Origin: Elusimicrobiota bacterium
GTDB taxonomy: Bacteria; Elusimicrobiota; Elusimicrobia; UBA1565
Direction: 5' to 3'
Length of the DNA stretch: 15,638 nt
Assembly: GCA_043819795.1 (NCBI GenBank)
Contig: JBDREN010000006.1
Location: 1 to 15,638 of the forward strand
The translations under genes and the position numbers were made by a program. Below are positions 1,796 to 15,262 of the stretch, piece by piece; the first letter of the stretch is position 1; each line of letters starts with the position of its first letter. Below the pieces are notes generated by a model that saw only the letters and a list, made by a program, of their open reading frames with translations, was not told where the DNA came from and did no database searches.

Positions 1796-3115
1796 TCACC
1801 TCGCTGTCATCGGGTGAGTGATCCATGGGGGCAGCAGCGGGTTTTTGCTGAGGATGGCCTCGTACTTGGGCCAGTTTACGGTCTTGCCTCGAGTTCGTCG
1901 GTTTAGCCATTTCTTCCACATACAGCGAACACCCCGGTAGAACCCCCACATACGTTGGTAGTTCGTTGGGCGTCCGTAGTATTGGTAATGGCCCCGCAAC
2001 TTCCGGTTGAGGGCTTCGCATTGCTTCGGCACAGGATCATGCCTATGCTTTTGGCACCATTCCGAAATCCCCCGCAAGCTCCGTCTAATTCGCTTGCGCA
2101 TCGTTCGGACATGGACTATGAAACGCCCCCGTCGGCTCCACGCGCATTTATGCGTGAAACCAAGGAAGTCGAAGGTGTCTGGCTTTCTCCCTCCAGGCCG
2201 CTCCGCCTTTTGTAGGGCGAAACGCCCGAACTCAATGAGTCGGGTCTTTTCCGGATGGAGAGTCAGGCCATACTCCGCGAACCTCTTGGTTAGGACCATC
2301 AGCATCCCTTCCGCATCCTTCCGGTACTGAAAACAGAGAATGAAGTCGTCGGCGTATCTCACCAGGTGTGCTTCCCCTCGCGTTCGGGGCTTGACCACCT
2401 CCTCAAACCACGTGTCCAGCACATAGTGGAGGTAGATGTTCGCGAGCAAAGGGCTGATGATCTGCCCTTGTCCCGTGCCCGTCTTTGTGATGAGAAGCCG
2501 CCCCTTATCGATAACCCCGACGTTAATCCATTTCCCGATCAGTCGTAGAATGCTTCCGTCTACTACTCTCCTCTTGATTATCTCAATGAGTTGCCTTCTC
2601 ACGATCGAGTCGAAGTAGCTCTGGATATCGGCTTCCAGTACGTAGGACACCGGGTGGCGGCATATAAGCCTACCCACCTGGTCCAGTGCGTCATGTGGGC
2701 TGCGCCCAGGACGGAATCCGTGCGAACATTCCAGGAAGTCAACCTCATAGATCGCGTTCAGCGGTTCGAGCGTCGCCTTCTGCACGATCTTATCCTCCAG
2801 GGATGGAATCGATAGCGGACGACGCTTATCGCTGCCATCTCCCTTCGGAATATAGACCCTGCGCAAAGGTTGCGCCCGGTACCGCCAATTCTTTACGCGA
2901 TCATGAAGCCCCCGGATGTTCGCTCGGACGTCCTTCACATACTCCCGATACGTGACGCCATCCACACCCGCACTTGCGTCCTTCCGTAGGCCCTTAAAGG
3001 CCCGATACAACGCCTCCTCCGTGAGCAGGTGAGCGATCGAGAGGAACTGCCGCTCCCTGTCTCCCTTTGCCAACTCGGCTATTCGGCTGAGTTTCGTTGA
3101 CACGGACTCAGGCAT
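1796..3115 (-). CDS. ltrA: Group II intron reverse transcriptase/maturase, no endonuclease domain
   Basis: ASAGVDG (RT0), RRVYIPK, RPLSIPSLEDKIVQ, SHGFRPGRS, ADIQSYFD, GTGQGQIISPLLANIYLH, catalytic YADD, FDFLGF, domain X (LRGHYQYYG). No C-terminal HNH. SD GGAGG upstream. Confidence 0.96.
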   Translation of the reverse strand: MPESVSTKLSRIAELAKGDRERQFLSIAHLLTEEALYRAFKGLRKDASAGVDGVTYREYVKDVRANIRGLHDRVKNWRYRAQPLRRVYIPKGDGSDKRRPLSIPSLEDKIVQKATLEPLNAIYEVDFLECSHGFRPGRSPHDALDQVGRLICRHPVSYVLEADIQSYFDSIVRRQLIEIIKRRVVDGSILRLIGKWINVGVIDKGRLLITKTGTGQGQIISPLLANIYLHYVLDTWFEEVVKPRTRGEAHLVRYADDFILCFQYRKDAEGMLMVLTKRFAEYGLTLHPEKTRLIEFGRFALQKAERPGGRKPDTFDFLGFTHKCAWSRRGRFIVHVRTMRKRIRRSLRGISEWCQKHRHDPVPKQCEALNRKLRGHYQYYGRPTNYQRMWGFYRGVRCMWKKWLNRRTRGKTVNWPKYEAILSKNPLLPPWITHPMTAR

Positions 3116-4028: not shown

Positions 4029-4568
4029 ATGAAGCGCCTTGTTTCGCCTTTCTCGAGGGCCATGGTCTCTCTGGGCATCGTGGCGGCCGTCTTTCCCCTG
4101 GCCGCCTACACTTCGGTCGAGCTCACCTCCACGCCTTGGTTCTGCGGCTCCTGCCATGAGATGGAGCCGGTGAAGGAGGGCTGGATGGCCTCCGAGCATT
4201 ATCCCCGCCCGGACAGGCCCAAGGGGAGGCGCGGGGCCTCGTGCCGGGATTGCCACTTGCCGGGCTGGCATCATCCCGCGTCCGTGTTGGCGCAGAAGAT
4301 CCGGCACGGCCTCAAGGACGGCTACCGACATTTCTTGCCGGCCCGGGATCACGAAGCCAAGGACTTCTATTTTGCGCTGAAACAGGTGTACCTCAGCCAG
4401 ACGACCGACGCCATGTGCCTGCGGTGCCATGCCACAGTGCGGGATCCCGCTGAAGACGTCATCGAGACGGGCCTGGGAGAGATCCGCGGCCTGCACTCCT
4501 CGAAGGAAGCGACGGTCCTGCGCTGCGTGACCTGCCACAAGAACATGGGCCATGGGATCTACGAATGA
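4029..4568 (+). CDS. NapC/NirT-family membrane-anchored tetraheme cytochrome c
   Basis: N-terminal hydrophobic helix followed by TSTPWFCGSCHEM. Four CxxCH motifs (CGSCH, CRDCH, CLRCH, CVTCH) and C-terminal CHKNMGH. The start could instead be ATG 4062. Confidence 0.88.
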   Translation: MKRLVSPFSRAMVSLGIVAAVFPLAAYTSVELTSTPWFCGSCHEMEPVKEGWMASEHYPRPDRPKGRRGASCRDCHLPGWHHPASVLAQKIRHGLKDGYRHFLPARDHEAKDFYFALKQVYLSQTTDAMCLRCHATVRDPAEDVIETGLGEIRGLHSSKEATVLRCVTCHKNMGHGIYE

Positions 4569-6110
4569 CACGGCTGACCCGCCGCGAGTTCCTGGGCGCC
4601 GGGGCCTTATCAACCCTGGGCGCCATCCTGCTGCCTGAGACGGTCTGGGCCAAGCTCGGCAAGACGGCCCCGCCGCGGGGTTATGCCGTGACGGGTTGGT
4701 CCGGGAACGAGTTCGAGCTCCCCCACAAGTTCCGCGACGGTTTCTCCCCGCCCGAGGCGAGCCCCTCGGAGACCCGCGAGGTCGTGGTGGTCGGATCGGG
4801 GATAGCGGGCCTGGCCGCCGGGTTCAGGCTGCGGCATACCGACCTTCTCGTTCTCGAGACCGCGCGGGACAGCGGCGGCAACTCCCAGGCCGGCCGATGG
4901 CGCGACATCCCCCTTCAACATCGGCGCGGCATATTTCGTCCAGAACGACGACGAGATCGGCGCTCTGCTTGCGGAGGCGGGCCTCAAGCTCGCCTCGGTC
5001 AGGAAGCCCTTGGATCGCTGGTACATCGGTGGGAAGTGGGTTGTCGAACCGTGGGACGAGCCCGTGATGGCCGGCCTGCCGCCGGGCCTGCGCCGAGCCA
5101 TGCGAGGCCTGAAGAAGGCCCTGGAGGACGTATCGGAGGGGCCGGATTACCCGCACATCCCCTACCGGAGAAGCTCCCGCAGAGCCCTGGAGCTGGACCG
5201 GATCTCGTTCGCCGAATGGCTCAAGCCGTACGCCCACCCCGACCTGATGCCGTTCCTGATCTCGTACTGCTATTCGGCGATGGGAGCCCCCCCGGAAATG
5301 GTGTCCGCTTACGGCGGCGTCAATTTCTACTCGGAGATCCTCGCCGACATCCACGCCCCCCCCATCGGCAACGCGGCCATCGTCAAGAGCCTCGTCCAGG
5401 GCATCGAGTCCGCGGGCGCCGGCAGGATCCGCAACGGGTGCCACGTCCATAAGGTCTCGCCGGCCCCCGACGGCTCGGCCATCGTGCGATATGTCAGGGG
5501 CGGGGACAGTCTCGCCGTGAAGGCCAAGCGCGTCGTCCTTGCGGTCCCGTATTTCGCCGCGAGCGCCCTTCTGGACCCCCTCCCGGACGGTCAGCGCTAC
5601 GCGCTGAAAGCGCAGCAATACGCCTCGTACGTGGTCGCCAATCTCTGCTTCGACCGGCGGGTCAGCCTCGAAAGCTACGCCAGCTCCACGGGGGGGAAGG
5701 TCGCATTCGAGGATTTCATCCCGGCAGACTGGGTGGCCGGGACGCCGCGGCCGGGCGGGGCCGGCGGGCCTCAAGTCATCACCGTGTTCGCGCCCCTGCG
5801 CGAGTCCCTAGCCGGCCGCTGGCGCCTGCTGTCCGCCGCGCCCGAGGAGTTCGCGGCGCCGTTCGTCCAGGCCTTCGAGAAGCTTGTTCCCGGCGCCTCC
5901 AGGCACCTCAGAGAAGCGCACATGACGCGGTGGGGGCACGCGATCCTCGTGAACAGGCCGGGCATGTTCACCCGGTGGCTCCCCAGCATCCAGAAGAGGA
6001 TCGGCCCGGTCCTGCTGGCCCACAGCGACGGGCAGGGGCTTCCCGCGTTCGAATCCGCGGTCTACGAGGGGCTGGCCGCAGCACGACACGTCCTCGAGGC
6101 CTGGAGATAG
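4565..6110 (+). pseudogene. Tat-exported FAD-dependent oxidoreductase (flavin amine-oxidase/HemY-like superfamily) with +1 frameshift at C5 run 4909-4913
   Basis: Twin-arginine signal TRREFLG...VWA, Rossmann VVVVGSGIAGLAAG, and GGNS. Deleting one C from ATCCCCCTTC gives DIPFNIGAAYF in frame with ORF 5010-6110 (RWGHA, AHSDGQGLPAFESAVYEG), for 514 aa in total. May be a sequencing error rather than a true pseudogene. Confidence 0.85.
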
Positions 6111-6522: not shown

Positions 6523-7248
6523 ATGGTGAATCTGTCTTTGCCCCGCAGAAGGAGGATCGGGCCGCTCGACGTCATCGAGTTCGCGGCGGGGCCGGAGGCG
6601 CCCACGATCGTCTGCTTCCACGGCTACGGGGCCAACGCGGCGGACCTGGCCCCCTTGGCCGGGGAGGTCCCCCTGGAGCGCCCGGCCCGCTGGATATTCC
6701 CCGAAGCCCCGCTCGAGATGGAGATGCTGCCCTCGGGCCGGATGTGGTTCCCCCTCGACGAGGAGAGGCTCGAACGCGCGCAGGTCATGGGCAAGCCTTT
6801 GGACTTCTCCGGCTCCAGGCCGCCCGGCCTCGACGAAGCGCATGAAACGGCCCGCGGCCTTGTCGACGCTTTGGAGACGCCCTGGAACCGCCTGATCCTG
6901 GGGGGCTTCAGCCAGGGCTCCTCGCTGGCTCTGGAGCTCGCGCTCAACGCGCCGGAGTCCCCGCTGGGGCTGTATATCCTGTCCGGCAATATCATGGATG
7001 AAGAATCCCTGCGCCGCCTCGCGCCGGCGCGCGCCGGCACGCCCTTTTTCCAGTCCCACGGCACGATGGACCCGCTCCTCGGCTACGAGGGCGCCAAGCG
7101 GCTCGAAGAAGCGCTCAAGGAGGCCGGGCTCAAGGGCGAGCTGCGCAGCTTCAACGACGGCCACACCATCCCGATGGACGTGCTCGTGGGCCTGGGCGGC
7201 TTCCTGGACGAGCGCATCGCCGAGGCGGGAAAGGAGGCGACGGAATGA
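6523..7248 (+). CDS. Phospholipase/carboxylesterase (alpha/beta hydrolase)
   Basis: FHGYGAN oxyanion motif, GFSQG nucleophile elbow, HGTMD (Asp) and GHTI (His) triad. Confidence 0.92.
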   Translation: MVNLSLPRRRRIGPLDVIEFAAGPEAPTIVCFHGYGANAADLAPLAGEVPLERPARWIFPEAPLEMEMLPSGRMWFPLDEERLERAQVMGKPLDFSGSRPPGLDEAHETARGLVDALETPWNRLILGGFSQGSSLALELALNAPESPLGLYILSGNIMDEESLRRLAPARAGTPFFQSHGTMDPLLGYEGAKRLEEALKEAGLKGELRSFNDGHTIPMDVLVGLGGFLDERIAEAGKEATE

Positions 7249-8636
7249 ACAGCGCACGTTTCGCGGGCATCGCCATGACCGGCCTTCTGCTGGCGGGATG
7301 CATGCCCATCCCCAAGGCTCCCTCGCGCCGCGACCCCTTCGCGGGCATCGACATCCGCACCGCCCCCCCGGCCTATCCCGGATTGACCCTGGCCCTGATC
7401 CTATCCGAGAACACCAAGGCCGCGATCGAGTACGGGCACCAGGGAAGCGCGATGGCGGGCTTCGACGTCAACCGGTTCATCGAGGAGGATATCGAAGTCT
7501 ATAAACGGAACTTCAAGACGGTCGTCAAGGTGGAGAAAATGGAGGAGGCCCGGGCGATCAACGCGGACCTGATCGCGCTCCTCGACACCTTCGTCGAGGC
7601 GAAGAGAATCTTCAAGATGGACTCCAGCGTGGTATTCTTCTCGCCGGACCAGCGCCAGATCGAGAAGATCGGCGCGCAAGGCGAAAGGAGCTTCTTTACC
7701 GCCAGCCCGGCGACGGTCGTTTCCGGGGTGGCGGAGGAAGTCAGGAGAGAGATCGAAAGCTCGCTGCGCGCGTCCGCGAAGCTGGCGGCATACGCGAAGA
7801 CCCGGGGGGGCTCGGCCCCTCGGAAGCCCACGCCCCCCGAGCCGGCGGCGAGGGCGATCCGTTCCGACGTGGACACGCCGGGCTACAAGCTCAACGAGCG
7901 TCCGGACGACTTCGCCCTCGTCATCGGCGTCGAGAAGTACTCCGACCTCCCCCCGGCCGAGTTCGCCAAGCGAGACGCCGAGGCGGTCAAGGAGCACCTG
8001 CTCGCCCTGGGCTTCCCCCGCCGCAACGTGATCCACCTCTCCGGGTCGCAGGCCGTGCGCTCGGCTCTGGCGAAATACCTTGAGGAGTGGCTGCCGAGGA
8101 ACGTCAAGCCCGAGAGCAGGGTGTTCTTCTACTTCTCCGGCCACGGCGCCCCGGACGCGCGGACGGGCGGGGCCTATCTCGTGCCCTGGGGCGGGGACGC
8201 GAACTTCCTGAAGAGCACCGGATACCCGTTGAAGGAGCTCTACCGGAGGCTGGACGCGCTCAAGGCCAAGGAGGTGGTCGTGGCCCTGGACGCCTGCTTC
8301 TCGGGAGCGGGCGGGCGCTCGGTCCTGGCCAAGGGCGCGCGGCCCCTGGTCCTCAAGGTGGACACCGGCAGTCCCTCCGGCGGCAAGATCACGCTGTTTA
8401 CCGCGGCCTCGGGGACCGAGATCACCTCCGCCCTGGACGACCAGGGCCACGGGATCTTCACCTACTTCTTCCTGAAGGGGCTCAACGGGGAGGCACGGGA
8501 CCGCTCGGGACGCGTGACCTCGAAGGGGCTTTACCGCTACCTGAAGCCGAAGGTCCAGGACGAGGCCCGCCGCCAAAACCGGGAGCAGACGCCCGGAGTA
8601 TTCTATCCCTCCGGCGCCGGCCCGGTCCTGCGATAG
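7245..8636 (+). CDS. Lipoprotein with C-terminal caspase-like (peptidase C14) domain
   Basis: Lipobox LLAGC, Pro-rich linker, FALVIGVEKY, YFSGHG (His), LDACFSG (Cys), HGIFTYFFLKGL, QTP. ATGA overlap with the upstream gene. Confidence 0.9.
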   Translation: MNSARFAGIAMTGLLLAGCMPIPKAPSRRDPFAGIDIRTAPPAYPGLTLALILSENTKAAIEYGHQGSAMAGFDVNRFIEEDIEVYKRNFKTVVKVEKMEEARAINADLIALLDTFVEAKRIFKMDSSVVFFSPDQRQIEKIGAQGERSFFTASPATVVSGVAEEVRREIESSLRASAKLAAYAKTRGGSAPRKPTPPEPAARAIRSDVDTPGYKLNERPDDFALVIGVEKYSDLPPAEFAKRDAEAVKEHLLALGFPRRNVIHLSGSQAVRSALAKYLEEWLPRNVKPESRVFFYFSGHGAPDARTGGAYLVPWGGDANFLKSTGYPLKELYRRLDALKAKEVVVALDACFSGAGGRSVLAKGARPLVLKVDTGSPSGGKITLFTAASGTEITSALDDQGHGIFTYFFLKGLNGEARDRSGRVTSKGLYRYLKPKVQDEARRQNREQTPGVFYPSGAGPVLR

Positions 8637-8645
8637 AAACGCGAA

Positions 8646-8699
8646 CGGCCCGAGATCCGAGTCACGGATCCCAGGCCGCCGCGGGACCTCACGCCCGCG
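8646..8699. terminator. Two GC-rich hairpins between convergent genes (possible terminator or stabiliser)
   Basis: CGGCC..GATCCG-AGTCA-CGGATC..GGCCG (8646-8678) and CGCGGG-N8-CCCGCG (8680-8699). No U-tract. Confidence 0.35.
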
Positions 8700-8708
8700 T
8701 CGCGCGGA

Positions 8709-10292
8709 TCAGCCTTCGATGATCTCCTCGGCCAGCTCCCGGTCGACGTTCGACACGTACTCGATGCCGCTGATCCGAGCGGCCTCCTCGGTCAAGGCGC
8801 AGAGGTCGTCGCGGGTGATGTGCTCGAGCGAGAACTTCCTGGCCCCGCACATGAGCTGCCGCATCCCCTGGGCGCAGCGCTGCAGGTAGGAATAGACCCC
8901 GATCGCGCCCGTGGGGAGCTTGGCGAAGTCCTTCCCGTACTGCTCCTTGAGCGAATGCGCCTCGACGAAGATCTCCTCCACGGAATTCCCGAAGCGCTCC
9001 ACGAAGACCGGAGCCTTGCCCGAGGCGATCTTGTTGCCGATCGTCTTGCCGACCATCGCGGCCGTGAGCGGGGCCCGGGCCATGGTGATGATCTTGAAGT
9101 ACGGCGCCCCGAAGGCCAGGCCCTTGAATATCTGGTCCTCGAACACGAAGCCGCTCGCCACGGCGATGGGCGGGACGTACTCGCCCTTCTTGGCCAGGGT
9201 GTCGCAATACTGGTAGAGCAGGCTAAAAAGCTCGACGGGCGGCATGCCCCACTCGTTCATCATCTTCCAGGGGCTCATGCCCGTGCCGCCGCCGGCCGCG
9301 TCCACGGTCAGCATATCGATCTTGGCCTTCGAGGAGAATTTCACCGCGCGGGCGAGGTCCGCCGGGCGGTACGCGCCCGTCTTCAGGGTCACGTACCGGG
9401 CGCCGGCCTTGCGCAGCTGGTCCACCCGCTCCATGAAGCCCTCCTCGGTCACCATCCCCACCCGGGAATGGCGCTCGAACTCGGTGAAGCTGCCCTTCTC
9501 GAAGGCCTGGATGACGCCCTTGTCGTGGGGGTCGGGCAGGACGACGTAGCCCCTATCCTTGAGCATCTGGGCCTTTTTCAGGCTCTTGATCTTGACCTCT
9601 CCCCCGATGTTCTTGGCGCCCTGGCCCCACTTGAGCTCCACGGCCTTCACGCCCAGTTTCTGGAGCGCGTACTCCTGCACGCCCAGGCGGGTGTCCTCCA
9701 CGTTCGCCTGGACGATCACCGCGCCGTAGCCGCCCCTCTGCCATTGCCTGAAGAGCTTGACCCGGCGGGCCAGCTCGGGGGAGTCCGTCACCTTCCCTCT
9801 GGAAATGGTGGTCTCCGGGTCCATCCCGCAGACGTTCTCCCCCACGGTGAGGCCCACGCCGGAGATCGCGGCTCCCGCGGCGAGCCCCTCCCAGTTGTTC
9901 GACGCCACGTTCGTGGAGCCCATGCCCCCGAACACGATGGGGAGCTTCAGCTTGATGCCCGGGAACGCGCGGCCGATCTTGGTCTCGAGGTTCACGTTGG
10001 GGAAGATGGCCTTGTCCGAGTCGGCCTCGATCCCGTGCGCGCCGACCGCGGTCCCCATGATGTTGAAATGCGACAGGTCGACGGGATAGGCCTTCTCCCC
10101 GGCCGTGGTGATGATGCCGAAGGGTTGGGGATAGATGACCTCGTGGGCCCTAAGGGCGGACCTGCCCACCTCGCACATGCCGATGCACCCGTCCACGCAG
10201 GTGGAGCACAGCCCGCTCAAGGGGCTTACGGAATCCACGGTCCTGTTCTTCGTAAGAGTCGCCGCGCTGGCGTTCAATTTGATCGGAGCCAT
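8709..10292 (-). CDS. Stand-alone FMN-binding glutamate synthase family protein (GltB FMN-domain-like)
   Basis: ELKWGQGAKNIGGE, LKTGAY, TVDAAGGGTG, GGMGS, GENVCG and N-terminal CSTCVDGCIGMC. No glutamine amidotransferase domain. Confidence 0.9.
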   Translation of the reverse strand: MAPIKLNASAATLTKNRTVDSVSPLSGLCSTCVDGCIGMCEVGRSALRAHEVIYPQPFGIITTAGEKAYPVDLSHFNIMGTAVGAHGIEADSDKAIFPNVNLETKIGRAFPGIKLKLPIVFGGMGSTNVASNNWEGLAAGAAISGVGLTVGENVCGMDPETTISRGKVTDSPELARRVKLFRQWQRGGYGAVIVQANVEDTRLGVQEYALQKLGVKAVELKWGQGAKNIGGEVKIKSLKKAQMLKDRGYVVLPDPHDKGVIQAFEKGSFTEFERHSRVGMVTEEGFMERVDQLRKAGARYVTLKTGAYRPADLARAVKFSSKAKIDMLTVDAAGGGTGMSPWKMMNEWGMPPVELFSLLYQYCDTLAKKGEYVPPIAVASGFVFEDQIFKGLAFGAPYFKIITMARAPLTAAMVGKTIGNKIASGKAPVFVERFGNSVEEIFVEAHSLKEQYGKDFAKLPTGAIGVYSYLQRCAQGMRQLMCGARKFSLEHITRDDLCALTEEAARISGIEYVSNVDRELAEEIIEG

Positions 10293-10293
10293 A

Positions 10294-11052
10294 CTATCCT
10301 CCCGAGATCACTTCTTCTTTTTGTTCCTTCCCGGACGTCTTGCCCGGAGGCGTCGTCTCTTTCTGCCTCCCCCCTTCCTTCTCCCGGACGCAGGTCCCGC
10401 AGGAGCCGGTGGGACCCATGTAGCATTGATAGTCTTCGTGAAGATCGGCGCAGGTAGGCTGAAGGGGCGCGCAGTTGCCGCAGACCGCGTTGGCCGCCTC
10501 CGGACCCTGGCAGCGCGAGTTGCAGACGGGGCAGATGTACATGCAGCCGCCGCAGTGGCGGCACACGTCCGACTTGGCGCCGAAGGGCGTGGTGATCCTG
10601 CGCTCTTGGCCCCGGCCCACGAATCCGATGGCGCCCGCCATCATCTGCTCTTCGCACATGCGCACGCAGAGCCCGCAGAGGATGCAGTCCTCGTGCTTCT
10701 GCCTGAACCGCACCTCCTGGACGCCGAACTTCGCCGCCAGGTCCTGGATCGTCTTGGAGCTCGGGCACACGGAGAGCAGGAGCTCGACGATCATCCGGCG
10801 CGTGCGGAGCACCCACCGCGAGTTCGTCCGGACGTTCAGCCCTTCCTCGACGGGGTAGGTGCAGGCGGTGACCAGGCGGGCCCTTTTGCCGACGCCGGTC
10901 TCGACCACGCAGAGCCGGCATCCTCCGAACGGGGAAAGGCCGTCCTCATGGCACAGCGTGGGGATCTCGAGCCCCAGGAAGCGGGCCGCGTCCAGCACGG
11001 TCCAATGGCGCTCGGCGTCCAGGTCGATCCCGTCTATGGTTACGCGGGGCAT
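10294..11052 (-). CDS. NuoG/HydA N-terminal-like [2Fe-2S]+2x[4Fe-4S] subunit with Cys-rich tail
   Basis: Likely true start is ATG 11052 (SD AAGGAG; MPRVTIDG), not 11358. IPTLC..GGCRLCVVE..LVTAC, CILCGLCVRMC, CRHCGGCMYICP. 252 aa, with no H-cluster or molybdopterin domain. Confidence 0.9.
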   Translation of the reverse strand: MPRVTIDGIDLDAERHWTVLDAARFLGLEIPTLCHEDGLSPFGGCRLCVVETGVGKRARLVTACTYPVEEGLNVRTNSRWVLRTRRMIVELLLSVCPSSKTIQDLAAKFGVQEVRFRQKHEDCILCGLCVRMCEEQMMAGAIGFVGRGQERRITTPFGAKSDVCRHCGGCMYICPVCNSRCQGPEAANAVCGNCAPLQPTCADLHEDYQCYMGPTGSCGTCVREKEGGRQKETTPPGKTSGKEQKEEVISGG

Positions 11053-12932
11053 GACTCCTTCGCCTTCCCGGTCTTCACTGCGTCGAGGCGGCAGACGTTG
11101 AAGCACATCCCGCACTTGATGCATTTCGCGGCATCGATCGCGTGCGGCTTCTTGAGCTCGCCGGAGATGGCCTCCTGGGGGCAGGCCTTCAGGCACAGCA
11201 AGCAGCCCACGCACTTCTCCGGATCGATCCGGTATTCCACCAAGCTCTTGCACACGCCCGCCGAGCAGGTCTTCTCCCTGATGTGCTCCTCGTACTCCTT
11301 GCGGAAATAGCGCAGCGTACTCAGGACCGGATTGCCCGCGGTCTGTCCCAGCCCGCACAGCGAGCTATCCTTCACCGCGTTGGCCAACTCCTCGATAAGA
11401 TCAATATGCCCCTCTTTCCCCCTCCCCTCGCAGATGTCCGTCAAAAGCTCCCATAGCCGCTGCGTGCCCTCGCGGCAGGAGAGGCACTTGCCGCAGGACT
11501 CGTGCCTGAGGAAGTTCATGAAGTACTTGGCCACGTCCACCATGCAGGTCCGGTCGTCCATCACGATCATGCCGCCGGAACCCATGATGGAGCCCGCCCG
11601 GTAGAGGCTCTCGTAGTCCACCATCAAGCCCAGATGCTCCGCCGGGATGCAGCCGCCCGAGGGGCCCCCCGTCTGCACGGCCTTGAAGGGCCTGTCGTTG
11701 ATGATGCCGCCGCCGATGTCGTAGATGATCTCCCGGAAGGTCGAGCCCATGGGGACCTCGACCAGGCCGGTATTCCTCACCTTGCCGACCAGCGAGAATA
11801 TCTTCGCCCCCTTGCTGTTCCTGGTCCCGAAATGGGAGTACCAGCTCGCGCCCCGGCTGATGATGAGGGGGACGTTCGCCCAGGTCTCGACGTTGTTGAT
11901 GTTCGTGGGCTTGCCCCACAAACCCTTGGTCGCGGGGAAAGGCGGCCGCTGCCTCGGCTCGCCCCTTGCGCCCTCGATGGAAGCGATGAGAGCGGTCTCC
12001 TCGCCGCACACGAAAGCCCCCGCGCCCCTTTCCATGTGGACGTCGAAATCGAATCCGGAGCCGAGGATGTTCTTCCCCAGCAGCCCGTACTCCCTGGCTT
12101 GCTCGATCGCGATCCGCACGTGCTCCACGGCCACGGGATACTCGTTCCGTACGTAGACGTAGCCCTCTCCGGCGCCGATCGCGTAGGCCCCGAGGATCAT
12201 GCCTTCCAGGACGCCGTGCGGGTTGCTCTCCAGCAGGCTCCGGTCCATGTAGGCGCCCGGGTCTCCCTCGTCCGCGTTGCAGATGACGTATTTCGGCCTC
12301 CCCGGAGCCTTCCGGCAGAACTCCCACTTGAACCCGGTCGGGAATCCCGCCCCCCCCCTTCCGCGGAGCCCCGCGTTCTTGATCTCCAGGATCACGTCCT
12401 CCGGGGACATCCGGCTCAGCGCTTTGGTCAGGGCCTCATAGCCGTCGATGGCGATGTAGTCCCGTATCCTGGTGGGGGAGATCCGCTTGTTGTAGTCCAT
12501 GAGCAGGCGGAGCTGCCTCTTGTAGAAAGGAATCCTGCGCTCGTATTGGAACCGCTCTCCCGTCTTGGGGTCGCGGTAGAGGAGCCGGCGAACGACGTTG
12601 TTCTTGAGGATGGTCTCTTCGATGACCTGCTTGGCGTCCTCGGGCTTCACCTTTACGTAGCAGATCCCCTCGGGGATCAGGACGACCAGGGGCCCGTTCG
12701 CGCAGAAGCCGTGGCAGCCGGAGATCCTGATATGCACCTTGGACTGCAGTCCATTGTCGGCGACCGCCTTCTTAAACGCCTTCTCCAGCGCCGCGGCGTC
12801 GGCCGCGGAGCAGCTTGTGCATCCGATGCTGACGCGGACCTCGAACGCGTTCCGCTCGGCGTTGGCCGCCTTCCTCAGCCTGTCGTATTCCGCCACTCCG
12901 CGCAGCTTGTTCGTCGGCGCCATGGCTCTCAC
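11040..12932 (-). CDS. nuoF: NuoF/HydB-like NADH- and FMN-binding Fe-S subunit (not part of a complex I operon)
   Basis: GLRGRGGAGFPTG, NADEGDPGAYMDR, GAGAFVCGEETAL, GGPSGGC, ESCGKCLSCREG, SLCGLG, HIREKTCSAGVC, two C-terminal ferredoxin motifs, and an N-terminal thioredoxin-like Fe-S domain (GCHGFC). Start is GTG 12932 or ATG 12923. Confidence 0.93.
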   Translation of the reverse strand: MRAMAPTNKLRGVAEYDRLRKAANAERNAFEVRVSIGCTSCSAADAAALEKAFKKAVADNGLQSKVHIRISGCHGFCANGPLVVLIPEGICYVKVKPEDAKQVIEETILKNNVVRRLLYRDPKTGERFQYERRIPFYKRQLRLLMDYNKRISPTRIRDYIAIDGYEALTKALSRMSPEDVILEIKNAGLRGRGGAGFPTGFKWEFCRKAPGRPKYVICNADEGDPGAYMDRSLLESNPHGVLEGMILGAYAIGAGEGYVYVRNEYPVAVEHVRIAIEQAREYGLLGKNILGSGFDFDVHMERGAGAFVCGEETALIASIEGARGEPRQRPPFPATKGLWGKPTNINNVETWANVPLIISRGASWYSHFGTRNSKGAKIFSLVGKVRNTGLVEVPMGSTFREIIYDIGGGIINDRPFKAVQTGGPSGGCIPAEHLGLMVDYESLYRAGSIMGSGGMIVMDDRTCMVDVAKYFMNFLRHESCGKCLSCREGTQRLWELLTDICEGRGKEGHIDLIEELANAVKDSSLCGLGQTAGNPVLSTLRYFRKEYEEHIREKTCSAGVCKSLVEYRIDPEKCVGCLLCLKACPQEAISGELKKPHAIDAAKCIKCGMCFNVCRLDAVKTGKAKESCPA

Positions 12933-13330
12933 TTAAAGAACGTCGAGTACTTGGCGTAAAAAGCCCTGATCTCCGCTTCCGGGTCCTCGAATTCGACGAT
13001 ATGCTTCTTGCAGCCCATGCGCGCGCAGACCTGCACCATCCCGCCCTCCTGAAGGGCGATGGGGATCATCGGGGCGCGGCATGCCTCGCACACCCGGGTT
13101 CCCGACATCTCCTTGCTGCAGTGCGGACAGAAGAAGCTCAAGATCTTCCCCTTGGGGATCGCGAACGGTATCCTGATGGTATAGCTGCCGTACAGGCCGC
13201 TCACGAACATGTCGCCCTTCTTCTTGCCGTACTTAATGGCGAACCTGATGGAAGGCTTCGAATCGATCCTGTTCTCGCGGTCCATCAGGGACTTGCGGCA
13301 ATACCTGCACATCAACCTAAGCTTGATCAT
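12929..13330 (-). CDS. Cys-rich hypothetical protein (four Cys pairs; putative metal binding)
   Basis: CRYC, CPHC, CEAC, CARMGC. Coupled to both neighbours (1-nt gap upstream, GTGA overlap or short gap downstream). Confidence 0.85.
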   Translation of the reverse strand: MIKLRLMCRYCRKSLMDRENRIDSKPSIRFAIKYGKKKGDMFVSGLYGSYTIRIPFAIPKGKILSFFCPHCSKEMSGTRVCEACRAPMIPIALQEGGMVQVCARMGCKKHIVEFEDPEAEIRAFYAKYSTFFK

Positions 13331-13331
13331 C

Positions 13332-13832
13332 TCAGCCCCTGCGCTTGCTCTTATGTCCGCCGATCAGCGGCTCCACGTCCTTGATGCTGACTTGGCCATG
13401 GTACTGCCCGTCCTTGACCACCACGGGACCGATGGCGCAACATCCGAGGCAGTTCACGGTTTCCAGCGTGAACTCGCCGTCGCTCGACGTCTCGCCGGGC
13501 TCGACGCCGAGTTTCTTGCACAATTCCTCCGCCACGTGAGCCCCGCCCCGTACATGGCAGGCGGTCCCCAGGCACACCGAAAGAAGATGCTTCCCCTTTG
13601 GCTTGAAACGGAACGAATGATAGAACGACGCGACGCCGTATATGTCGATCAGCGAACGGCCCGTGCCTTTGGAAACGGCCCTGAGGGCGTCTTCGGGAAG
13701 GTAGCCGAGCTCAGCCTGGATATCCTGGAGAATAGCGATAAGGCTCAAACGCCCGCCGTCGCGGCTCTTGAGGATCCTTTCAACGACCTTGGAAGCCGTT
13801 TCAGCGTTCCCGCAAACGGTGCGTGCAGTCAT
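13332..13832 (-). CDS. nuoE: NuoE/HydC-like [2Fe-2S] subunit
   Basis: LIAILQDIQAELGYLP, GVASFY, VCLGTACHVRG, VNCLGCCAIGP. Confidence 0.93.
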   Translation of the reverse strand: MTARTVCGNAETASKVVERILKSRDGGRLSLIAILQDIQAELGYLPEDALRAVSKGTGRSLIDIYGVASFYHSFRFKPKGKHLLSVCLGTACHVRGGAHVAEELCKKLGVEPGETSSDGEFTLETVNCLGCCAIGPVVVKDGQYHGQVSIKDVEPLIGGHKSKRRG

Positions 13833-13960
13833 ACGCCCGTCACCCCGTATCTACGGCTTCACGGCTGACGGCACTGGCTTCTGCTCCCTCCGCTTCGCGC
13901 GCGTTTCGCGCATCTTGACGTCGAAGTGGGCTGTTCAGGAACAGTCTTATTCTTCTGGAA

Positions 13961-13976
13961 TGCAACATTCCAGCCA
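13961..13976 (-). promoter_or_regulatory. Putative sigma-54 (-24/-12) promoter of the nuoE-like operon
   Basis: Minus strand TGGCTGGAATGTTGCA matches TGGC-N7-TTGCA (GG-N10-GC), about 130 nt upstream of ATG 13832. It overlaps the perfect IR CTGGAATG-N3-CATTCCAG (13955-13973). Confidence 0.6.
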
Positions 13977-14122
13977 TCCATACTCTGCGGCATACCTGAG
14001 CCGCCCCCTCGGTCGCGACACGCGGCCGCCAACGGCAAAAATCCAATCAAATCCTGGATATCCCGGTTGGCAACCCCGGGCTGCGACGTTTCCGGAAGGA
14101 CTGCGGTTGGATGGGGCGGCAG

Positions 14123-14161
14123 GCCTCGGTTTCAACGATCTGATGATCGCCGATCCGAGGC
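14123..14161 (-). terminator. Hairpin immediately after pfkA stop
   Basis: GCCTCGG-A-TCGGCGATC-ATCA-GATCGTTGA-AA-CCGAGGC. No U-tract, so its function is uncertain. Confidence 0.45.
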
Positions 14162-15262
14162 TCAATCCCCGAACGAGGTGCCGACCGCGCGGGCGGCCTG
14201 GATCAGTGGGTGATTGCGGGGGACAAGACGCTGCCGGCCTTCTCCGTGGTCGAGCGCGACGTCCGTCACGCGGCGACCCTTCATCACCACGAGCCTGTTC
14301 CGCTTTCCCGCCATGAGGGCCGTTACGGCCGCGTGGCCGAAGAGGGTGCCGAGCACCCGGTCCTCATGCACGGGAGCGCCGCCCCGCTGCACGTGGCCCA
14401 GGACGGTGCAGCGCGTCTCCACACCGGTCCGCGCCTCGATCTCCCGGGACACATGCCGGCCGATCCCGCCAAGCCGCACAGGCTCCGGGCTCGCCGGGTC
14501 GTAGCGGTCCACGACCTGCTCGCCGCCCACGGCCCGCGCGCCCTCGGCCACGCACAAGATGGTGAAGCGCTTGCCGTGATGGGAGCGCCATACGACCTTC
14601 CGGCACACCTTGTCCATATCGAAGGGCATCTCCGGGAGCAGGATGACGTCGGCCCCGCCGGCCACGCCCGCATAGAGGGCGATCCAGCCCGCGTTGCGCC
14701 CCATGACCTCCACGGCCATCGCCCGGTGATGGCTGGCGGCGGTCGTGTGCACGCGATCGATGGCGTCGGTGGCCACGGCCGTGGCGCTGGAGAAGCCGAA
14801 GGTCACGTCCGTGCCGGGAATATCGTTGTCGATGGTCTTGGGCACGCCGACGCAGTTGACGCCCTTTCGGACGAACCGCGAGGCCACGGCCATGGAGCCG
14901 TCCCCGCCGATAACGACGAGCGCGTCGATCCGGCGGCGGCGCAGGCGCGCCACGCAGCGATCGGTCCGGTCTTCGTAATGGACCTTGCCGCCCTTGCGCA
15001 CGGGATACCTCCCCGGATCGCACTTATTGTTCGTCCCGAGGATGGTCCCCCCGACCGTCAGGATGTTCGAGGTCTCCATCTCGCCCAGGGTGCGGAAGCG
15101 GTCCTCAATGAGCCCCAGGAACCCGTCCTCGATGCCCACGACCCGCAGGCCGTGCTCCATGATGGCGCTCTTGGTGACGGCCCGGATCACGGCGTTGAGC
15201 CCGGGACAGTCGCCGCCGCTCGTCAGCACGCCGATGCGCCGGATGGGTATTCGCTTGGCCAT
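14162..15262 (-). CDS. pfkA: 6-phosphofructokinase (PfkA family, group III type, probably ATP-dependent)
   Basis: TSGGDCPGLN, GGTILGT, IGGDGS (Gly at the ATP/PPi-discriminating position), PKTIDND, EVMGRNAG, LGHVQRGG. Start is ATG 15262 or 15277. Confidence 0.93.
   Translation of the reverse strand: MAKRIPIRRIGVLTSGGDCPGLNAVIRAVTKSAIMEHGLRVVGIEDGFLGLIEDRFRTLGEMETSNILTVGGTILGTNNKCDPGRYPVRKGGKVHYEDRTDRCVARLRRRRIDALVVIGGDGSMAVASRFVRKGVNCVGVPKTIDNDIPGTDVTFGFSSATAVATDAIDRVHTTAASHHRAMAVEVMGRNAGWIALYAGVAGGADVILLPEMPFDMDKVCRKVVWRSHHGKRFTILCVAEGARAVGGEQVVDRYDPASPEPVRLGGIGRHVSREIEARTGVETRCTVLGHVQRGGAPVHEDRVLGTLFGHAAVTALMAGKRNRLVVMKGRRVTDVALDHGEGRQRLVPRNHPLIQAARAVGTSFGD

Follow-up and report, generated by a model that had tools for sequence, protein, structure and literature searches.

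The window analyzed here, a stretch of 15,638 nucleotides from an Elusimicrobiota bacterium, comprises contig C6 in full; the genome measures 4.99 Mb and is 90.3% complete. The window contains a compact operon of five genes (Table 1) in which a module of the Bfu family, the electron-bifurcating enzymes that include HydABC, is encoded together with a flavin mononucleotide (FMN) protein related to glutamate synthase (GltS), here called G. As an earlier note on this DNA had proposed, all five open reading frames were found on one strand and tightly packed, with a 1-nt gap between bfuC and X, a 4-nt overlap between X and bfuB, a 13-nt overlap between bfuB and bfuA, and a 1-nt gap between bfuA and G. 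A Pfam scan of the 12 window proteins likewise showed none of the H-cluster, NiFe, Mo/W, glutamine amidotransferase (GATase), or GltD domains that the note had reported as absent. We conclude that the operon is a real and conserved variant of the Type 2 Bfu enzymes, that it is apparently undescribed, and that a role in nitrogen assimilation is probable. The counts out of 80 loci given below refer to the best 80 of at least 588 confirmed GTDB matches to G. The pfk gene 330 nt upstream of bfuC was rejected as an operon member because none of these 80 loci has pfk.

Table 1. Genes of the Bfu-G operon (positions in the window)
Gene	Position	Strand	Product and best evidence
bfuC (NuoE-like)	13332..13832	minus	166 aa; PF01257, E 9.5e-44
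X (Cys-rich, zinc-ribbon-like)	12929..13330	minus	133 aa; no Pfam family over cut-off
bfuB (HydB-type FMN subunit)	11040..12932	minus	630 aa; Pfam and PDB matches
bfuA (short Type 2)	10294..11052	minus	252 aa; closest structure WorA 9mqx_A
G (Glt-like FMN TIM barrel)	8709..10292	minus	527 aa; PF01645 over cut-off

Sequence comparisons support the assignment of BfuB and BfuC to a Bfu (HydABC-type) module. In the PDB, the first nine proteins matched by BfuB each serve as the B subunit of a HydABC-type, Wor, or Nfn/Stn-type complex, led by 7t2r_B (E 4e-243), 9mqx_B, and 7q4v_B, with NuoF of complex I weaker (E 1e-121). BfuB is defined by four domains, namely, Nuo51 FMN, SLBB, NADH-4Fe-4S, and 4Fe-4S ferredoxin (Schut et al. 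2022, PMC9304861), and the window protein carries all four, as judged by the Pfam equivalents of the InterPro domains listed in that survey, with BfuC alongside. The ligands of cluster B1 (C480, C483, C486, and C526), of both C-terminal [4Fe-4S] motifs reported earlier (B3/B4; C574-584 and C604-614), and of the C1 [2Fe-2S] cluster in BfuC (C87, C92, C128, and C132) are all present. The B2/Zn site was assigned by alignment to Acetomicrobium mobile HydB (7t2r_B) and from the ligand list in PMC9304861; residues C463, C501, H550, C556, and C561 correspond to C438, C476, H525, C531, and C536 of that protein. Of the metal site suggested in the earlier note, H550-x5-C556-x4-C561 stands, whereas the GGC cysteine, Cys428, does not occur in the published B2/Zn list and is thereby ruled out as a ligand, though it is kept in 74 of 75 relatives. 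In the extra N-terminal Fe-S domain, four cysteines occupy the Trx-like B5 site (C38-x2-C41...C73-x3-C77), but their spacing is shifted from that of the usual B5, and the site varies among relatives. A [2Fe-2S] cluster at B5 is dispensable (PMC11829005). The motifs GAYM, IFSL, and GGPSG were located as claimed, at 226, 378, and 422. BfuB also has A227, M229, F379, and GGPSG (422-426), corresponding to the A/E232, M234, F367, and GGPSG used as criteria by Losey et al. (PMC7311640), and the long HydB architecture regarded as typical of bifurcating HydABC/Bfu enzymes is thus borne out by both cofactor and sequence features.

The best structural relative of BfuA, by sequence (E 1e-37) and by fold, is WorA (9mqx_A). 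BfuA has the ligands of clusters A1, A2, and A4, and a gap-free alignment to WorA over the A3 region revealed no His/Cys A3 motif. The small size of BfuA, the missing A3, and the closeness to WorA make this the arrangement of a Type 2 Bfu enzyme, in which A1, A2, and A4 occur without A3 and the catalytic site resides in a separate, added subunit. The C-terminal tail of BfuA has eight extra conserved cysteines (C177-C221), each found in 63 to 80 of 81 relatives. In WorA, a C-terminal Zn finger props the helix that docks the catalytic module (PMC12318220), and by analogy the BfuA tail may hold Zn as well as, or instead of, Fe-S.

The added subunit would be G. Its earlier identification as a Glt-type FMN protein holds in that it matches PF01645 above the cut-off (53.9 bits, best stretch residues 281-405), but it is a distant relative of GltS; PDB searches with the G sequence and with a G profile returned nothing relevant. 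The AlphaFold2 model (mean predicted local distance difference test score [pLDDT] 86, predicted TM score [pTM] 0.89, residues 1-26 and 55-67 poor) is an FMN TIM barrel, and the nearest other Atlas cluster is glutamate-synthase-related (TM 0.66). Alignment with hhalign to ten GltB2/YerD-type proteins gave 96.9%, with ∼18% identity to GltB2-type profiles. Through this GltB2 bridge to 1EA0, residues K221, Q224, K227, R247, K304, T337, and G338 of G correspond to K931, Q934, K937, R957, K999, T1030, and G1031 of Azospirillum brasilense GltS, and all seven are invariant in 94 sequences of G and its sister clade G2 (G1+G2), except R247 (91 Arg, 3 Lys). We take this K931 series to bind FMN and the 2-oxoglutarate carboxylates in GltS; on that reading, the G barrel keeps the equivalents of the GltS FMN and 2-oxoglutarate residues, with a different beta-1 loop.

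By anatomy, then, G resembles the synthase domain of GltB, ferredoxin-dependent GltS, and GltB2 (1EA0, 1OFD; PMC8097209), sharing with them the FMN (beta/alpha)8 barrel, the E-x-K-x-x-Q-G-A-K motif, the Arg 20 residues after the Lys, the beta-6 Lys, and the GGTG loop. Glutamate synthases as delimited in PMC8097209, however, also have class II amidotransferase and beta-helix domains, either fused or as GltB1 and GltB3, and G falls outside that membership, with no glutaminase, central, or beta-helix domain. The three [3Fe-4S] cysteines that are invariant in the GltB2/YerD-type alignment and present in 1EA0 are also missing, since G has no Cys between 363 and 473. Its own features are an invariant N-terminal motif, C29-x2-C32-x3-C36-x3-C40, and an invariant, family-specific six-residue insert in loop 4 (272-277). 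Electrons are predicted to reach G from the Bfu module, compared to GltD or free ferredoxin in GltS. A His-Gly-Gly-Arg loop is the catalytic motif of FMN alpha-hydroxy-acid oxidases; G has an invariant D331-x3-GGTG at that place and shares with these enzymes only the fold. Sequence favours kinship with GltS over the fold-tied families. No longer fused form of G, including an A-G fusion, was found, which is weak evidence, in a family that comprises at least 7,980 clusters at E≤1e-100.

The linkage of G to the Bfu genes is conserved, as the earlier note required of a catalytic partner. The gene order in the 80 loci is C-(X)-B-A-G, with 68 of them having BfuC and 73 having BfuB. BfuA is found directly before G in 78; in the remaining two, which lack it, the contig begins no more than 300 nt from G. 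There are exceptions to the pattern: in L210, the G gene is located upstream of C-B-A, and in L204, glnA and NAD synthetase adjoin a G of 65% identity whose surroundings contain no Bfu genes. The closest relatives of G among the matches listed are Elusimicrobiota records (76 to 80% identity). According to record titles, bacterial hosts of the operon include Elusimicrobiota, Planctomycetota, Acidobacteriota, Aminicenantes, Chloroflexota, Bacteroidota, Bacillota, Actinomycetota, Zixiibacteriota, and Omnitrophota, and the archaeal hosts include Methanoperedens, Methanophagales, Thermoplasmatota, and Altiarchaeales. G-family genes of any kind are distributed unevenly, being present in 8 of 41 relatives and in 18 of 201 genomes from the phylum. 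Distances between B and G sequences correlate (Mantel rho 0.41, 0 of 999 permutations, 67 loci), a correlation that shared descent alone could produce, and the FastTree of G carries a long-branch warning. The sister clades G2 (∼50% identity) and G3 (∼42%) mostly stand alone, with B nearby in 12 of 80 loci, and stand-alone relatives within the phylum adjoin genes for NAD synthetase, CTP synthase, or GAF-ANTAR proteins, a full GltB1-B2-B3 cluster, or nfnAB. The third clade (∼42% identity) was seen in 1.4- to 1.6-Mb genomes, beside an NH3-type NAD synthetase and a GAF-ANTAR gene (L197-L202). One genome with a stand-alone G2 has a short Cys-tailed BfuA on another contig (G044:C57:9414-10073), a possible partner in trans.

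The C-terminal end of BfuB is exchanged among loci. The two [4Fe-4S] motifs are replaced by a terminal GltD/NfnL-like FAD domain in 28 of the 80, and 23 of these 28 long forms carry a motif that we take to be of the NADP(H) type; both tail clusters are kept in all 44 of 44 short forms. Strongly supported branches in an 85-row quick tree of the B core force at least 7 tail changes. A good example is G003, of the same family as the window genome, which is 84% identical in the B core and has a long tail compared to the short one in the window. Exchange of the tail, repeated without loss, suggests that the low-potential arm of BfuB is in use. Tandem bfuC-bfuB sets, one with a long B and one with a short B and its own A, precede A-G in L040:439-9581 and L046.

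X is an accessory rather than a core subunit, being present in 18 of the 80 loci, between bfuC and bfuB, and it is possibly regulatory. Its look-alikes in the Atlas are fused to NuoE or to histidine kinases. In the genome of the window, an X paralogue (42% identity) precedes the glutamate dehydrogenase gene gdh on contig C133, as part of a cassette of a histidine kinase, a LuxR-type regulator, and the X paralogue (HK-RR-X; G000:C133:27509-31317, L101). Homologues of this cassette (44%, 60 to 65%, and 50 to 56% identity) precede the Bfu-G operon itself in L001 and L017.

Gene context bears out the earlier suggestion of a nitrogen or glutamate role. Of the 80 operon loci, 21 have glnA (9), gdh (8), or nrpR (9) at a distance of up to 8 kb. 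For gdh taken alone, fewer than one copy would be expected in the ∼0.6 Mb of flanking DNA, a rough and informal estimate for loci that are partly kin. Neighbours of G2 in 80 metagenome loci are nrpR (23), hisF (14), glnA (9), gdh (8), PII (6), and amt (5). We assumed GGAA-N6-TTCC as the consensus of the NrpR operator. Sites of this kind were found in 11 of 74 G2 upstream regions (shuffled mean, 0.27), although 8 of these regions are 89 to 93% identical near-copies; upstream of bfuC, just 2 loci out of 65 had them, each from Methanoperedens, and the window had none. In the Methanoperedens loci L018:3015-9581 and L050, G2 and the operon are divergent, and two such sites, 41 nt apart, lie between them, nearer to G2. 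NrpR is a repressor of nif and glnA that responds to 2-oxoglutarate (PMC9765008). G-family loci repeatedly include an extra hisF-like gene, which in most cases has no hisH and usually follows nrpR directly; examples are L010, L027, L045, L056, L080, and the 14 G2 loci.

The complement of other enzymes was also inspected. The window genome encodes a type III glutamine synthetase (GS) and two glutamate dehydrogenases (GDHs), and the queries used found no GltB1, GltB2, GltB3, Amt, or PII in this 90.3%-complete genome; GATase_2 was not found there either, so the lack of an amidotransferase noted for the operon extends to the genome as sequenced. No match to GltB1 or GltB3 occurred in the 80 loci, and PF01493 was found in only 20 of 57 genome entries.

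Among known systems, the closest is WorABCSL of A. mobile (Type 2 Bfu; PDB 9MQX, PMC12318220). It shares with the operon the BfuBC core, a separate catalytic subunit, and a short BfuA without A3 (247 compared to 252 aa) that ends in a Cys/Zn-finger tail. The operon differs in having a single FMN TIM barrel instead of WorSL, no WorS nanowire subunit, eight conserved cysteines in the A tail, and a third couple predicted to be of high potential. The Bfu family as surveyed in PMC9304861 likewise has the same BfuB/BfuC domain set, cluster ligands, and modular third-substrate subunit. A HydB-GltA (GltD-like) fusion described in archaeal hybrid [FeFe]/[NiFe] hydrogenases (PMC11216029) has the B architecture of the 28 long relatives, but it partners a hydrogenase, whereas in the operon relatives long and short tails alternate before the same A-G pair. 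The survey lists FeFe, NiFe, Fdh, Nfn, F420, Wor, Bam, Codh, Por, Mbh, Nuo, and Rub classes and leaves many clades unassigned (PMC9304861); 'glutamate' and 'Glt' have no occurrence in its main text and one supplement, Supplementary Table 1 being perhaps not fully covered. Full-text literature searches, with subscription papers outside their scope, found no description of the Bfu-G pairing; the 'glutamate' passages found in PMC12018979, PMC5736913, PMC6037941, and PMC11216029 concern GltD-like domains or structure lists.

Taken together, these features suggest a mechanism, to which we assign a rough probability of 0.45, in which NADH and reduced ferredoxin confurcate onto G and 2-oxoglutarate is aminated with free ammonium. 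The BfuABC module and G would form one complex. Electrons would run from the FMN-B1-C1 site through A1, A2, and A4, then via the Cys-rich tail of BfuA (a Zn finger and/or an extra cluster) to a putative cluster on the four N-terminal cysteines of G, which would hand them to its FMN. 2-Oxoglutarate would be bound by K227, R247, and T337 and would form 2-iminoglutarate with ammonium; the reduced FMN would then reduce the imine to glutamate, and the invariant loop 272-277 may replace the glutaminase tunnel. The benefit would probably be ammonium assimilation without ATP where NADH alone falls short, plus the disposal of fermentative reductant.

The calculated energetics of this reaction bear on its direction. 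The potential of the glutamate couple is −0.12 to −0.14 V. When this general value is combined with the potentials in Table 1 of PMC9304861, reduction by NADH plus ferredoxin is calculated to be downhill even at 1 μM NH4+ (−6.5 to −2.6 kJ/mol at a glutamate/2-oxoglutarate ratio of 100), whereas NADH alone becomes uphill from ∼0.1 mM NH4+ at the same ratio. If NAD+ and ferredoxin together accepted the electrons, oxidizing glutamate would cost +48 to +52 kJ/mol. In the available Bfu structures, the third substrate is on the BfuA side, and NAD and ferredoxin are together on the other side (PMC9304861, PMC11829005, PMC12318220); because oxidation is uphill in this wiring, only the reductive, confurcating direction is plausible there. 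The earlier note is supported as to the Bfu-type module, the conserved Glt-like linkage, the missing amidotransferase, and the link to nitrogen and glutamate, and the glutamate-oxidizing direction that it also considered is implausible in the known Bfu wiring.

Several observations weigh against confurcation onto G. Glutamate synthesis, the complex, and confurcation are all predictions. The fold search with G ties lactate oxidase, flavocytochrome b2, and type 2 isopentenyl-diphosphate isomerase (IDI-2) at Z ∼26 (for IDI-2, Z 26.5, root mean square deviation 3.5, 315 aligned residues, and 14% identity), GltS (1OFD) reaches only Foldseek rank 5 for the G model at 17% identity, and the beta-1 loop has an invariant G-S-T at 125-127 compared to MS[FY]G in GltS-type proteins. 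The characterized third substrates in Table 1 of PMC9304861 all lie at or below about −380 mV. By calculation, NADPH alone would be thermodynamically almost equal to NADH plus ferredoxin. As for context, 59 of the 80 loci have no glnA, gdh, or nrpR within 8 kb, with many loci kin; the nearest neighbours of B and G agree in only 31 of 67 loci; and relatives of G are commonly found alone, with no Bfu module beside them. Another PF01645 gene (E<1e-30) is present in 23 of the 50 operon-bearing genomes (50 of the 80) and a GDH-family gene in 48 of 57 genome entries (two entries duplicate others), which means that a Bfu-G enzyme is not needed by default. Mutual exclusion with canonical glutamate synthase (GOGAT) was rejected, since a strong second PF01645 gene also occurs in 6 of 18 G-bearing phylum genomes.

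Some of these points would be explained if complex and confurcation were real and the substrate of G were different, such as another 2-oxo acid, amine donor, or imine. N-Methylglutamate synthase is an example of an enzyme with another amine donor. The low identity to GltB2-type profiles, the deviating beta-1 loop and loop 4, the fold tie with alpha-hydroxy-acid oxidases and IDI-2, and the coexistence of G with a complete GltB1-B2-B3 cluster in L206 all fit this explanation. We nevertheless consider it unlikely, since both putative carboxylate anchors keep their GltS spacing (K227 and R247, K+20), GGGTG stands where hydroxy-acid oxidases have His-Gly-Gly-Arg, and the neighbours are ammonium-assimilation genes, with no other catabolic pathway recurring among the clustered neighbours. 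The stand-alone relatives, one of them directly behind nfnAB (L207), instead raise the question of coupling: the module might be an NADH input without ferredoxin coupling, or G might be cotranscribed but separate and use free ferredoxin or NfnAB. The 28 loci in which the ferredoxin-docking tail is swapped for a GltD-like domain, and the A-G fusion that was not found (weak evidence), agree with such uncoupling. It appears improbable given that the Losey signatures and B1-B4 ligands are all conserved, including the tail clusters of every short form, that A and G are nearly always adjacent while BfuA has no catalytic domain of its own, and that the tail is exchanged for another low-potential domain and never seen to be lost.

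The operon could also be catabolic with a noncanonical wiring, reduced ferredoxin driving the conversion of glutamate to 2-oxoglutarate and NH4+ with formation of two NADH, or, in reverse, NADH bifurcating to ferredoxin and 2-iminoglutarate. The presence of gdh near 8 of the 80 loci, its sharing of the HK-RR-X cassette, the many hosts in what we presume to be peptide-fermenting lineages, and a glutamate couple well above NAD, presumably as in an Etf-type arrangement, would suit a catabolic enzyme. It is made quite improbable by the common side of NAD and ferredoxin in Bfu structures, with the cost calculated above, and by nrpR, amt, and PII neighbours and NrpR-like operators that indicate assimilation. 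Finally, G might belong to an ordinary glutamine-dependent glutamate synthase that is split, with the amidotransferase in trans and Bfu replacing GltD. The GS type III of the window genome, glnA beside 9 of the 80 loci, the orphan hisF-like gene near 11 of the 80, and the class II GATase domains of other enzymes in the window genome leave some room for this. It seems very improbable, however, because neither GltB1, GltB3, nor GATase_2 was found in that 90.3%-complete genome, GltB1 and GltB3 had no match in the 80 loci, PF01493 is infrequent among the genome entries, and no longer fused form of G was found.

If NADH and ferredoxin do confurcate onto G, a broader proposal follows, which we put forward tentatively and with more doubt than belief: besides GS/GOGAT and GDH, ammonium might be assimilated by a third route that is widespread, and the operon would encode it. 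The enzyme would be a flavin-based glutamate synthase that does without glutamine and is driven by confurcation, and its low-potential arm would be a swappable cassette (either a 2x[4Fe-4S] tail for docking ferredoxin or a GltD domain of the NADP(H) type) with at least 7 exchanges. It would then be the first Bfu enzyme to perform C-N bond formation, the classes listed in PMC9304861 including no amino-acid or nitrogen reaction. Energy-limited anaerobes across many phyla would be able to assimilate ammonium without ATP through the low potential of ferredoxin, and a very large family named only 'FMN-binding glutamate synthase family protein' would gain a function. The predicted cofactor needs of the enzyme are limited to FMN, Fe-S, and Zn. 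In its short and long forms, BfuB offers naturally occurring variants with which the low-potential branch of the Bfu mechanism could be dissected.

A promoter scan of positions 8550-14250 gave no sigma-70 site and no convincing terminator, and a loose sigma-54-like match upstream of bfuC was discarded as unsupported in relatives (strict, 1 of 65; loose, 0 of 65). A search of sequencing runs listed no RNA data set containing this DNA. Elsewhere in the window, a probable lipoprotein with a C-terminal caspase (C14) domain (7245-8636, plus strand) lies behind a carboxylesterase gene and is convergent with G, and a reverse transcriptase (PF00078) similar to the maturases of group II introns (1796-3115, minus strand) lies in a stretch of lower GC content. 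A Tat-signal flavin amine-oxidase-like gene (4565-6110, plus strand), apparently split over two frames near 4960-5010, is directly preceded by a NapC/NirT cytochrome c gene (4029-4568). Elsewhere in the same genome, contig C131 carries a candidate small ferredoxin gene, below the family cut-off, and a second Bfu set (G000:C202:3772-14229, L102) is flanked by genes for 2-oxoacid oxidoreductase-like subunits and by GltD-like and NfnA-like genes.

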